From Naegleria gruberi (lineage: Eukaryota), in the NCBI GenBank assembly GCA_000004985.1, contig GG738845.1: DNA of 64,000 nucleotides, one strand, 5' to 3'. Below the pieces are notes generated by a model, which made no database searches, was not told where the DNA came from, and was given only the letters and a program-made list of their open reading frames with translations. The translations under genes were made by a program, and so were the position numbers. This document shows, piece after piece, positions 3,899 through 53,834 of the stretch (the first letter of the stretch is position 1; the number at the start of each line of letters is the position of its first letter).

Positions 3899-3915
3899 TT
3901 TTTGCCGCCCAAAAC
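3899..3915. promoter_or_regulatory. E2F-like GC box (TTTTTGCCGCCCAAAAC; core GCCGCCC at 3904..3910) in the DNAI7/CASC1 promoter
   Basis: Quasi-palindromic site that fits TTTSSCGC. It lies 15-31 bp upstream of the ATG at 3884, inside the 127-bp spacer 3885..4011. Confidence 0.45.
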
Positions 3916-4011
3916 TACAGCCCCTCCACTAAATTTTTGTAATTGTGTATTTATAATTCATTTGACATGTTTTGCATTGCTGTCTGACACCATCAACTAA
4001 TTACATTAAAT

Positions 4012-5985
4012 TTATTTTTGAGGTTTTCGATTGTCTTTTGTTTTTAGACCGGCCCTCTTTTTTGCTTGCTCGTTGAAAATATCCTCATACACAGGGATAG
4101 TATCCAAGGAATAGGATTCTGCTCTTACACTGATTTTGTTCGAGTAACTATTTCTATAAGATGAAACATCTTCGTCCTTTTCAACCTCAAACCCTTCATA
4201 AACATCGTTAAGGAATTCTTCCAACTCCTCGTTTGGTTCATCAAGAGTGTGTAATTTACGTTGCTGAACTTGGGCCAAAATATCCATTTCCACATCATTA
4301 CTCTCGGTTCTGGCAAGAAACATTGGTTCTTGTTGCTTCTTTTTCTTCAATCCTTTTACGATATTGCCACAATAAACTTCCTTGGCTTTGTATGTTAAGT
4401 GACTGCTAGTGTCTTCTTCTTCCAATTGTTGATTTGATGAGAAAGGATGAGACGGCTTTCCCCTGTCACTTGATGCTGTCATTGGTCTGCCCCCTACTGA
4501 GCTTGTTGTTGTTGGTCTTATCATAGATGAAGTTGTTGGTCTCATTTGAGATGTGGATGGTCTGAGACCAATTCTACTCTTTGACATGCTCCTAAATATG
4601 GAGGAAGAAGATGTGGAAGGTCTCCTAAAGAAGGAAGCAGATTGTGGTCTGCCTCCATCTAATCTTGGAGTTGATGTTGTTATATTTCGTATCATGTTAT
4701 TATCTGCAGGGTTATAAAGACGATTGCTAATTGTCAGAATTAAGGGGTTATCATTAAGGGTTTCATCCAAGGACTCCATTCTTGTAAATTTGATAGATTT
4801 TTTCAGCATTTCAAATTCATTTTCTAATTCCTCTAAAGAAGGGGTTTGCCCATCTTTTTTAATAGGACTAATACCTCTGTCGTCCATTTCATCCTCAATC
4901 AATGGTGAATCATCTAAATACTCCAATGTTTGGAGAGTACTCTTAACCATAGACCTATATCCAATCATTTTAACAACCAGTGGGTTACCTGATAAAGTTA
5001 AACTTGTTAGATGCTTGCAATCAGAAAGATAAATTAACTGTAACTCATCTTCAATATTATTTCCTTCCAAATCCAATACTTCCAATTCTTCCATTCCCGA
5101 TAGATCGGAAATGTCTTCAATGTCATTATAAGAAAGATATAATTCCTTCAATCGAGAGAATGTTGATATTCCATCCAATTCCCCAATGCCACATCTCGAT
5201 AACCATAAAATTCTTACAAACTTTAAACTTGTTCCAAGATCTCTTATGGAGGGAATTGTGCTTCCATTTAGTTTTAACTCTTCTAAATTGGGCAATTTGG
5301 AGCCAACATCACCAAGTGAATTTTTGGTTGTATTTACAATAATTTCGAGATGTTTTACATTGTTAAGGTTATCCTCGCCAGTTGCTGCCTTGAGCTTTGA
5401 CTCTGATAAGTACTCCTCCAGAGCTAGAAGATTAGGGTCAATTTCTTCAGAAGGTAACTCATTCAAATCAAAGGAAACAATAGATTTGACAAGACCAAGA
5501 GGAAGACTTGTACTAGGTATTGGTTTTAAATCATCGACTTCTGAGGTTCCTCTATACTCCACCCTCGCCTCTGTTTGTTTCCTTATGAACTCATCATCTT
5601 CATCGTCACCGTCGTTACTTAAAAGTGATGACACACTTTCTTCGGAAGGAGTTTCTATACTTTCATTGTCATCATACTTTTCATTGTCCTCTTTCTTTTT
5701 GATTTTTTTGCTATTCTTTGGGTTGCCCAAAACACTAACCATCTTTTTGTTTTCGATTGAGCCAGAACGTTTTGGCAAAATTGGATTTAGAGGCTCCACA
5801 ACTTTTTGTCTGACTGGTTTGCTTTGTAAGTCATCCTGAAGAGTTGTTCCCATATGTTTTAAAAGTCTATTTCTCGTAAAAGATGAAGCTGATTTTGTTT
5901 GTTCCACAGAAAAATCAGAATGAATAACTTTACTGCCTCCTTCAAACTCCTTCCGATAGGAAGACTCTAAAGATTTGTTCAACAT
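4012..5985 (-). CDS. LRRC56: Leucine-rich repeat protein LRRC56/ODA8 (outer dynein arm maturation and transport), 657 aa
   Basis: Single ORF with ATG at 5985..5983. The LRR block LPNLEELKLNGSTIPSIRDLGTSLKFVRILWLSRCGIGELDGISTFSRLKELYLSYNDIEDISDLSGMEELEVLDLEGNNIED aligns nearly residue for residue with the human LRRC56 core as I recall it (LPNLDQLKLNGSHLGSLRDLGTSLGHLQVLWLARCGLADLDGI...LEVLDLEGNSVED). Confidence 0.75.
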   Translation of the reverse strand: MLNKSLESSYRKEFEGGSKVIHSDFSVEQTKSASSFTRNRLLKHMGTTLQDDLQSKPVRQKVVEPLNPILPKRSGSIENKKMVSVLGNPKNSKKIKKKEDNEKYDDNESIETPSEESVSSLLSNDGDDEDDEFIRKQTEARVEYRGTSEVDDLKPIPSTSLPLGLVKSIVSFDLNELPSEEIDPNLLALEEYLSESKLKAATGEDNLNNVKHLEIIVNTTKNSLGDVGSKLPNLEELKLNGSTIPSIRDLGTSLKFVRILWLSRCGIGELDGISTFSRLKELYLSYNDIEDISDLSGMEELEVLDLEGNNIEDELQLIYLSDCKHLTSLTLSGNPLVVKMIGYRSMVKSTLQTLEYLDDSPLIEDEMDDRGISPIKKDGQTPSLEELENEFEMLKKSIKFTRMESLDETLNDNPLILTISNRLYNPADNNMIRNITTSTPRLDGGRPQSASFFRRPSTSSSSIFRSMSKSRIGLRPSTSQMRPTTSSMIRPTTTSSVGGRPMTASSDRGKPSHPFSSNQQLEEEDTSSHLTYKAKEVYCGNIVKGLKKKKQQEPMFLARTESNDVEMDILAQVQQRKLHTLDEPNEELEEFLNDVYEGFEVEKDEDVSSYRNSYSNKISVRAESYSLDTIPVYEDIFNEQAKKRAGLKTKDNRKPQK

Positions 5986-6106
5986 CCAATTTAATTTGAT
6001 TTTTAAAAATGCTGAAGATTAAGATGTGTTGATGTTGTACTGGGTTAGGAGATTGCTGATGTGAGTTGTATGGTCAATTTTTTTTGTTTTTAAAAAAAAG
6101 TACAAG

Positions 6107-6120
6107 AAAAGGCGGGAAGA
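6107..6120. promoter_or_regulatory. E2F-like GC box (AAAAGGCGGGAAGA; core GGCGGGA at 6111..6117) upstream of LRRC56/ODA8
   Basis: It lies 122-135 bp upstream of the ATG at 5985, in the spacer 5986..6238. It is the only GC-rich word in an otherwise A/T-only spacer. Confidence 0.4.
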
Positions 6121-6238
6121 AATACTATGAACCTGATTTGTACAATCTAAAAAATATTTAATATTTAAAATTAAAATTATTATTTTTAATTAACGTTACA
6201 ATTTAATTAACAAATCCTACGCTCCTATTTAAACAAAA

Positions 6239-52961: not shown

Positions 52962-52962
52962 A

Positions 52963-53718
52963 TTAATCGAATCTTCTTGACATTTTAGATTGTGGTGTTG
53001 ACAGTGTATTATTGGAAGGAGGAATAGTCACCGAAGGAGCATTATTACCAACTACTGTATTTTGTTGTAAAGTGGGTGGATTTGAATTAGTTGCTCCCAT
53101 TTTCAATGAGTTTATCATTTCTGGAGGAATAAAATCCATTAGTCTTGAATTATTTACCAAATTATAAGCAGCATCATCTTGTAAATCTCTTTCCTGTTGA
53201 ATAGTATTTCCCATTTTTGCAAGAGTTTCTTTCAACATATTACTAAATTCAACAACCATACTTTGCATTTTCTGTTTTTGTTCTTCAATTTCTCTTTGTT
53301 TTAATTCAATAATTTGATCTTTTTCCTTCTTAACTTCATGAAGAGCAACTTTAGCAAGATGTAACTGATCTGCTAAAGAGGTATTCTTTTGCTCACTCGT
53401 ATTTAATTTTTCAATTAAAGTTTTTTGCAGAGCTTTGTATTGTCTAATCATGTCCGAGGCAATATGAAATCTTTCCATCTTTTCCTTTTCAAAATCTTCA
53501 TCCAATTGAGATAATTTTGACTTCATTTCCATCTCGGAGGCTCTTGCCTTTTGCGTTTGTTCAGATCTTAATACCATATACCTTTCTAACGTTTCAATGC
53601 GTAGTTTTAATTTTTTAATTTCCTCCTTTTGTTCCTGTATTAAGTCAGCATCTGTTTTCTCTCCAGGTTTGCTGTTTTTGTTTCCCTTTTGATTTTTGCT
53701 AGGTGTTTTAGAAGACAT
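52963..53718 (-). CDS. Short coiled-coil flagellar protein, DRC12/CCDC153-like (DUF4515 family), 251 aa
   Basis: ATG at 53718..53716. The N-terminus is basic and continues into a coiled coil carrying the family hallmark IASDMIRQYKALQ (compare DMTRQYK.MQ in CCDC153/BBOF1) and a later MQSMVVEFSNMLKETLAKM segment. Its stop codon (52965..52963) lies 1 bp from the PHF5A stop. Confidence 0.5.
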   Translation of the reverse strand: MSSKTPSKNQKGNKNSKPGEKTDADLIQEQKEEIKKLKLRIETLERYMVLRSEQTQKARASEMEMKSKLSQLDEDFEKEKMERFHIASDMIRQYKALQKTLIEKLNTSEQKNTSLADQLHLAKVALHEVKKEKDQIIELKQREIEEQKQKMQSMVVEFSNMLKETLAKMGNTIQQERDLQDDAAYNLVNNSRLMDFIPPEMINSLKMGATNSNPPTLQQNTVVGNNAPSVTIPPSNNTLSTPQSKMSRRFD

Positions 53719-53762
53719 TGTTTGAAATCAATTTTTTTGAAAGAAGTGATTGAACAATAAAA

Positions 53763-53777
53763 ATAAAGGCGGGAGAG
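53763..53777. promoter_or_regulatory. E2F-like GC box (ATAAAGGCGGGAGAG; core GGCGGGA at 53768..53774), DRC12-like / IFT52 bidirectional promoter
   Basis: It lies 45-59 bp upstream of the DRC12-like ATG (53718) and 82-96 bp upstream of the IFT52 ATG (53859). Confidence 0.45.
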
Positions 53778-53820
53778 ATACCAGGACAGTTTGTAGAGTC
53801 AGTTTAAAATTCTGTTACAT

Positions 53821-53834
53821 TTTTGGCGGGAACA
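53821..53834. promoter_or_regulatory. E2F-like GC box (TTTTGGCGGGAACA; core GGCGGGA at 53825..53831), IFT52 / DRC12-like bidirectional promoter
   Basis: It matches the textbook E2F site TTTTGGCGGGAA. It lies 25-38 bp upstream of the IFT52 ATG (53859) and 57 bp from the other box, in the same orientation. Confidence 0.5.

Follow-up and report, generated by a model that had tools for sequence, protein, structure and literature searches.

Within an hour, Naegleria activates hundreds of genes for basal bodies and flagella, a response studied since the 1960s. Here we describe a short GC-rich word, hereafter called the box, that lies upstream of cilium genes in a 64,000-nucleotide stretch of the Naegleria gruberi genome (contig GG738845.1 of assembly GCA_000004985.1; hereafter the window). 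The box is restricted to promoters, is associated with cilium genes in the window, and fits the consensus of the E2F transcription factors; comparison with relatives shows apparent selection on it at some promoters. In all likelihood its seven copies represent one functional promoter element tied to cilium genes, whatever protein reads it. On a more specific proposal our confidence is evenly balanced: the box would be an E2F-family site close to the transcription start site that links the cilium-gene set to a single switch, off in amoebae and fired at differentiation.

The window is AT-rich (30-36% GC), and two heptamers stand out from it. GGCGGGA occurs five times where 0.41 copies are expected, a count reached in 0 of 100 shuffles of the 64-kb sequence, and lies at 6111 (+), 22587 (-), 38361 (-), 53768 (+) and 53825 (+). 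GGGCGGC occurs twice, at 3904 (-) and 9513 (+), against 0.16 expected, and 2 of 100 shuffles reach two. The seven sites, numbered 1-7 along the window, had been reported in an earlier reading made from the DNA letters without database searches (hereafter the sequence-only reading), and all seven coordinates are exact. That reading had placed the boxes in spacers 15-135 nt upstream of a start codon. The position upstream and within the spacer holds for every box, and the measured distance to the ATG is 20-126 nt.

How strict is this confinement? Open reading frames (ORFs) of at least 100 amino acids cover 86% of the window. As the promoter zone we took the 150 nt upstream of 23 clear ATGs, which amounts to 4.8% of the window and, at 27.8% GC, is its AT-richest part. 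All matches to GGCGG[GC]A fall inside this zone (7/7; binomial p = 6e-10), and so do 7 of the 11 GGCGG pentamers in the window (p = 1.7e-7). The claim that boxes are confined to intergenic spacers upstream of ATGs is thus borne out, and exact copies are not common in coding sequence at the rate set by base composition: every GGCGG[GC]A is promoter-proximal and none is coding. Nor is there a copy upstream of any of the genes that the sequence-only reading had listed as box-less. A weight matrix built from the seven sites scores them at 17.4-22.5 bits, with the next best position in the window at 12.2; the scoring is circular, as the same sites served to train the matrix. Even so, the seven boxes stand apart as a discrete set, with no weaker copies trailing behind them.

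The genes facing the boxes are predominantly ciliary. For four targets named in the sequence-only reading, family and structure comparisons uphold the ciliary assignment: DNAI7/CASC1, in two ORF pieces (1709..3884, -; Pfam Casc1_N, 6.8e-41); BBS4 (NAEGRDRAFT_28891; 22633..24000, +; PDB 6xt9, E = 1.6e-128); DRC12/CCDC153 (NAEGRDRAFT_45024; 52963..53718, -; PDB 8th8, E = 2.1e-16, with DRC12 as its UniRef name); and IFT52 (53859..55385, +; Pfam), which has one intron, after the first exon, and is 100% identical to NAEGRDRAFT_77715. The fifth, a leucine-rich repeat (LRR) gene at 4012..5985 (-), encodes SDS22-type repeats that Pfam and PDB comparison place close to axonemal LRR proteins. It is plausibly LRRC56/ODA8, an orthology that the repeats make probable and do not prove. 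Early induction during differentiation has been reported for the LRRC56 homologue of Naegleria (PMC4361367). Counting these five, ciliary genes make up 5 of the 8 box-facing genes, and among the ~22 box-less genes there is no clear case (Fisher p = 4e-4). A conservative count that treats box-less Kelch and p25-alpha ORFs as ciliary gives p = 7e-3. Family searches of the window proteins recognised no replication or mitosis gene among the box-facing genes.

Two labels did not survive. NAEGRDRAFT_56451, which had been called SCLT1-like, matches nothing in Pfam or PDB, a search of 1.84 billion representative proteins gave it only three relatives, and a masked two-protein chimeric query returned only CASC1 orthologues and the orphan itself. 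We reject the SCLT1-like label and regard the gene as a lineage-restricted orphan. The description of the targets as centriole genes likewise falls, as no centriole-duplication gene is among those identified.

Aligned on GGCGG, the seven sites read TTT(T/G)GGCGG(G/C)AAA. This can be set beside the 12-mer TTTGGCGGGAAA, which we take to be the consensus of E2F1, E2F4 and E2F6 derived from chromatin immunoprecipitation. Site 4, at BBS4, matches TTTGGCGGGAAA exactly; sites 5 and 7 differ from it at one position, and sites 1 and 3 at two. With at most one mismatch allowed, the window holds three matches against 0.19 expected, all of them in promoters. Measured against TTTSSCGC, sites 1, 3 and 4 fit at 8 of 8 positions, sites 2, 5 and 7 at 7 of 8, and site 6 at 6 of 8; sites 1 and 3 fit on the opposite strand, and sites 2 and 6 have weaker flanks. 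The variants found in orthologous promoters, GCGGGAA, GCGGCAA and GCGCCAA, are those permitted by the E2F consensus GCGSSAA. A plain reader of GGCGG fits these data less well, because the variant GGCGCC lacks GGCGG. As a sequence fit the E2F reading therefore stands, with an exact TTTGGCGGGAAA at BBS4 and replacing variants that all conform to TTTSSCGC. Of the earlier interpretation as a whole, the promoter restriction, the ciliary link and the E2F fit are retained, and the SCLT1-like and centriole labels are dropped.

Other known site classes do not describe the box. The RFX X-box (GTHNYY AT RRNAAC) has no exact match in the window, and its one-mismatch matches number 9 against 16.3 expected, none in a box promoter. 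An Sp/KLF GC box (GGGGCGGGG core in a G-rich context) is a poor description, as only sites 1 and 3 have GGGCGG and all flanks are A/T runs. The paired CDE/CHR arrangement bound by the DREAM complex is not seen either: no TTYGAA stands 4 nt from the box on either side in the seven contexts. The box points the same way as its gene at CASC1 and IFT52, and the opposite way at LRRC56, the coiled-coil gene NAEGRDRAFT_77710 and BBS4. This use of both orientations favours an element acting at the DNA level over one acting in RNA.

Relatives retain the box at IFT52. All four Naegleria species compared have it ~27-35 nt before the ATG, as GGCGGG or GGCGGC variants. N. gruberi and N. fowleri share GGCGGGAA; in N. 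fowleri it lies 33 nt before the ATG, is the sole GGCGGGA in 21.5 kb, and has been kept although the upstream neighbour gene differs. N. lovaniensis has GGGCGGGTAAAA together with an inverted CCGCCAAAA. An environmental Naegleria (JGI 3300002220), whose IFT52 is 83% identical, has TTTGGCGGCAAAAA, a variant of the GGGCGGC type, at the same position. Farther away, Acrasis kona encodes an intact IFT52 (10001-11555 of our locus L004) with GGCGCCAAAA within 30 nt of the ATG. Across 97 kb of Naegleria loci other than the window, 11 of 44 GGCGS cores fall in proximal promoters, a zone of 7.9% (p = 5e-4).

Elsewhere the box appears to move while its consensus persists. At BBS4, the environmental Naegleria has TTTCCCTCCAAAAC in place of the N. 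gruberi TTTCCCGCCAAAAC, and TGGCGCCAAA, a GGCGCCAAA site, 23 nt from the ATG. By sequence comparison this is a case in which the ancestral box has apparently decayed and been replaced nearby, that is, site turnover within one consensus. A Willaertia locus of 22 kb, fetched for its CASC1 gene, holds a sole GGCGCC, where TTTTTGGCGCCATTT and AGCGCCAATT lie 27-79 nt upstream of MNS1/FAP127. This gene was not chosen beforehand, and it encodes an axonemal inner protein (PDB match, 2.6e-41).

N. fowleri and N. lovaniensis also share a box at a gene of another kind. Upstream of it, the box (GGCGGCAA / GGCGGGAA) and TAACAGTA form the only conserved island (20950-20975 of locus L001 and 19405-19430 of L012), within upstream DNA that cannot otherwise be aligned. 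TAACAGTA is a Myb-like YAACNG word. The encoded Ser/Thr-rich protein (306/330 amino acids; PTFSIYETTY...) has no match in Pfam, PDB or NCBIfam. We regard this gene as a candidate new flagellate-stage gene.

What might read the box? An inventory of E2F/DP-domain genes, a check proposed along with the sequence-only reading, is available from published work: N. gruberi encodes one E2F, one DP, one DEL (E2F7/8-like) and one RB (Medina et al. 2016 supplement, PMC4862756). In the protein collection the E2F is NAEGRDRAFT_54558, the DP NAEGRDRAFT_50903 and the DEL NAEGRDRAFT_71591. Compared with human E2F4 in the E2F4-DP2-DNA structure 1cf7, the Naegleria E2F has an identical recognition helix, with RRxYD intact, and among solved E2F chains E2F4 and E2F5 score best. 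The DP retains RRRVYDALNVL. Since the DNA-contact helices of both proteins are unchanged, the same DNA specificity would be expected. The sequence-only reading had also supposed that RFX-type control is not found in excavate protists, and a 2025 review agrees for Naegleria, stating that Naegleria is without RFX, FOXJ1 and XAP5 and that other, unidentified factors must do the regulating.

Combining these observations, we propose the following model. The element would be a short, orientation-independent core-promoter site of consensus TTTGGCGG(G/C)AAA, usually a few bases from the word YTACAA, and it would mark a gene set consisting mainly of structural cilium genes: those for IFT-B, the BBSome, the nexin-dynein regulatory complex (N-DRC), the inner-arm dynein IC97 and an outer-arm assembly factor. 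Its predicted reader is the single typical E2F NAEGRDRAFT_54558 paired with the DP NAEGRDRAFT_50903, with the DEL NAEGRDRAFT_71591 and RB as possible repressive partners. In dividing amoebae, RB-bound E2F or DEL would act through the site to keep cilium genes silent, and at the start of differentiation E2F/DP would fire the box-bearing genes together. A broader version of this model, which we hold tentatively and think somewhat doubtful, would make the single typical E2F and DP, with RB and DEL as brakes, a flagellar master regulator acting directly via TTTGGCGGSAAA boxes. On that view the link between E2F and cilia, as seen in animal multiciliated cells and Stentor, would be old and might go back to the last eukaryotic common ancestor, and RFX/FOXJ1 would be a later layer added on the way to animals.

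The individual boxes differ in flanks and surroundings. Box 1 (TTTTGGGCGGCAAAAA, the GGCGGC variant; 3899..3914, -) lies 20 nt upstream of the DNAI7/CASC1 ATG at 3884. Box 2 (GAAAAGGCGGGAAGAA; 6106..6121, +) lies 126 nt upstream of the LRR gene ATG at 5985 and runs in reverse to that gene. Box 3 (AATTGGGCGGCAAAAG; 9509..9524, +) lies 60 nt upstream of the ATG at 9453 of NAEGRDRAFT_77710, a 750-amino-acid coiled-coil protein for which Pfam, PDB and further family searches gave no family assignment. A GGCGCC palindrome (9469..9474), one of only two GGCGCC copies in the window, stands 16 nt upstream of the same ATG; GGCGCC is also the form found at BBS4 of the environmental Naegleria, IFT52 of Acrasis and MNS1 of Willaertia. 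On the other side of this spacer, the AP sigma gene (9560-9802, -) has a last exon that extends beyond its 114-amino-acid ORF, which shortens the promoter spacer of the coiled-coil gene from 304 nt to ~177 nt.

Box 4 (22583..22598, -), which contains the exact TTTGGCGGGAAA, lies ~40 nt from the BBS4 ATG at 22633, and a CTACAA begins 7 nt downstream of it. Box 5 (TTTGGCGGGAAC; 38357..38372, -) occupies a divergent spacer of 102 nt, flanked by the orphan NAEGRDRAFT_56451 (ATG 38300) on one side and a Gln-rich gene (ATG 38403) on the other. Its target is ambiguous, because the CTACAA that adjoins it 5 nt downstream is directed at the Gln-rich gene and not at the orphan. The Gln-rich gene (38403-40770, +) is split over four ORF pieces and has a sub-threshold match to bZIP_1 (E = 8e-4; 19.9 bits, where the cut-off is 27.6). 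A true bZIP here would mean a transcription factor under control of the box, and so hint at a cascade. Box 6 (ATAAAGGCGGGAGAGA; 53763..53778, +), with weak flanks, lies 50 nt upstream of the DRC12/CCDC153 ATG at 53718, and Box 7 (TTTTTGGCGGGAACAT; 53820..53835, +) lies 27 nt upstream of the IFT52 ATG at 53859. A CTACAA follows Box 7 at 5 nt, and CTGTTAC precedes it, much as the Myb-like TAACAGTA accompanies the box at the Ser/Thr-rich gene of N. fowleri and N. lovaniensis.

CTACAA is the frequent form of a second word, YTACAA, which stands 13-60 nt before many ATGs on the gene strand (for example at 22604-22609, 38375-38380 and 53837-53842). Its core TACAA occurs 15 times in the 23 promoters against 5.7 expected, and on the gene strand it is present at 7 of 8 box genes and 2 of 15 others. 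Counted on either strand, it is found in 13 of 18 promoter spacers, including that of GRP170. YTACAA recurs in relatives (9987-9992 of L001 and ~9985 of L002), also in Willaertia promoters that have no box. We considered a bipartite element, TTGTAG/CTACAA plus box, and rejected it given TACAA in the GRP170 and box-less Willaertia promoters. As TACAA is widespread regardless of strand, we take it for a general initiator-like word that does not belong to the box; YTACAA is probably the initiator-like start-site word of heteroloboseans. Separately, a run of 5-8 A (AAAAAAATG) immediately precedes nearly every ATG here and likewise in N. fowleri, N. lovaniensis and Willaertia, a strong translation-start context that is useful in gene calling.

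The word GCGGCAAA (TTGTTTGCGGCAAAGG, without the GGCGG core) occurs at 52654-52661 (-), in the 5' part of the PHF5A coding sequence, 30 nt in, probably by chance. GCGGG and CCGCG words upstream of the GCFC gene are there because that spacer contains a tRNA-Ser with anticodon AGA (60214-60294, -). At 27031-30476 (+), a Kelch ORF is followed 34 nt on by ORFs with a p25-alpha/TPPP domain, and the two may be one multi-exon gene. This locus is without a box; the nearest look-alike, GGTGGCAAAC in the spacer between FKBP and Kelch, contains no CpG. Among the relatives, the box-less CASC1 promoter of N. lovaniensis has a GC-rich palindrome, AAATCGGGCTAGCCCGAAAC (~9850-9875 of L005), and the box-less IFT52 promoter of Willaertia has another, CCCACATGGGG (~9925-9940 of L002); the two are possible alternative promoter elements. 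A tRNA-like sequence stands just upstream of Willaertia CASC1 (~9870-9940 of L006).

Several points weigh against a cilium-gene switch that acts through the box. The sample is one 64-kb window of ~30 genes plus ~190 kb from relatives, and both the motif and the gene classes were defined post hoc, after inspection of the data. Three box-facing genes, namely the coiled-coil gene, the orphan and the Gln-rich gene, are of unassigned function. At CASC1, neither N. lovaniensis nor N. fowleri has the box (0/2), and their 22-kb loci are nearly without such words. This box is specific to N. gruberi. The element therefore turns over and is missing from some promoters even among Naegleria species; site 1 itself may be recent or accidental. 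Willaertia magna has no box at either IFT52 or CASC1 (0/2). Two DRC12-like metagenome contigs from unidentified protists have no box in their spacers of 17-60 nt, a result that is uninformative in that these contigs bear little on Naegleria. Finally, one E2F would have to serve both cell-cycle and cilium genes, which are expressed at opposite times, and the model leaves this unexplained.

We weighed four other accounts of the box. The most substantial accepts a genuine cilium-promoter element and disputes only its reader, which might be, for example, a lineage-specific binder of GGCGG with A/T runs whose sites resemble those of E2F by convergence. In its favour, no more than three of the seven sites match the 12-mer E2F consensus with one mismatch or none, the T/A flanks are poor at sites 2 and 6, only GGCGG is strictly invariant, and the N. 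lovaniensis IFT52 boxes GGGCGGGTAAAA and CACCGCCAAAA are each one base off TTTSSCGC. Set against this, the variants GCGGGAA, GCGGCAA and GCGCCAA make up exactly the GCGSSAA(A) set, GGCGCC dispenses with GGCGG, a cognate E2F and DP with unchanged DNA-contact helices are encoded, and an Sp/KLF-type GGGGCGGGG is unmatched, with GGGCGG in only 2 of 7 sites. We therefore regard another reader as a real possibility, if a rather unlikely one. A second account keeps E2F and removes the ciliary specificity: the boxes would be unexceptional E2F sites serving a wide regulon for proliferation or the cell cycle, and the cilium link would partly reflect sampling, or E2F repression of many non-growth genes. 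The split of 5 of 8 box-facing genes against 0 of ~22 others speaks against it, as do the lack of any recognisable replication or mitosis gene behind a box and the Willaertia gene found without prior selection (MNS1), again axonemal. E2F sites are nonetheless expected in any genome with E2F, DP and RB, three box-facing genes are not known as ciliary, and the box is also conserved at the Ser/Thr-rich gene of N. fowleri and N. lovaniensis, for which no family is identified. On balance we judge the broad regulon improbable.

The two remaining accounts fare worse. The word could act in the transcript, as a 5' untranslated region element affecting translation or stability, and several boxes are indeed only 20-40 nt from the ATG, near enough to be transcribed. 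Their mixed orientation relative to the gene, and the initiator-like CTACAA that follows them at BBS4, IFT52 and the Gln-rich gene, make this very improbable. We give least credence of all to chance or base composition, with the gene pattern read in afterwards. The sample is small, the motif was chosen post hoc, the CASC1 site is unconserved, and the GGGCGGC pair is marginal by itself, with 2 of 100 shuffles reaching two; but the observed GGCGGGA count was reached in none of 100 shuffles, 7 of 7 sites fall in the AT-richest 4.8% of the window, the IFT52 box is kept in four species, BBS4 shows turnover, and the MNS1 match was unselected.

Among the papers searched, none links E2F, or any defined motif, to Naegleria flagellar genes. 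The present analysis supplies a cis-element conserved at some promoters, three named candidates (NAEGRDRAFT_54558, 50903 and 71591) and testable promoters (BBS4 and IFT52), and E2F becomes a testable candidate for the flagellum-gene switch. Should E2F prove to be the reader, animals would not have invented the E2F-mediated link between leaving the cell cycle and building cilia. It would also explain how the programme stays silent and is then suddenly released in an organism that has no centrioles when dividing.

How does the box compare with known systems? To our knowledge, the geminin-family cofactors are restricted to animals. In vertebrates, E2F4/E2F5-DP1 with Multicilin/GEMC1 launches a burst of basal-body and cilium formation in a non-dividing cell (PMC4083089; PMC12183034). 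The likeness is an E2F-type site or factor at work outside S phase, binding being a prediction in the case of Naegleria. The difference lies in the targets: vertebrate E2F4/5 directly controls centriole-biogenesis genes along with FOXJ1/RFX, which in turn drive the structural genes, whereas the Naegleria box sits directly on IFT52, BBS4, DRC12 and DNAI7. The RFX X-box and FOXJ1 sites of animals and choanoflagellates (PMC10530576) resemble it as a proximal-promoter element common to IFT, BBS and axonemal genes, but the X-box is unrelated in both sequence and factor family.

Stentor offers a protist parallel. During regeneration of its oral apparatus E2F is induced early, its predicted targets peak with centriole-gene expression, and RNA interference against E2F blocks rebuilding of the ciliary array (PMC9371601). 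There, however, the 13 predicted targets are of mixed function, cyclins among them; that work did not single out structural genes of the cilium or show that sites are conserved, whereas the evidence in Naegleria is the position and conservation of the cis-element. The box shares with canonical G1/S E2F sites (TTTSSCGC; 1cf7) its sequence, quasi-palindromic T-run and A-run flanks and occurrence in either orientation, and perhaps also a place close to the transcription start, to judge from the nearby YTACAA; the genes that bear it in Naegleria, in contrast, are not replication or cell-cycle genes. In Caenorhabditis elegans, too, EFL-1/DPL-1 ties E2F/DP to genes of centriole or basal-body assembly (PMC4777132). 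Those nematode targets are duplication factors acting within the cell cycle, whereas in Naegleria assembly is de novo, in a differentiating cell, and the box is on axoneme and IFT genes.

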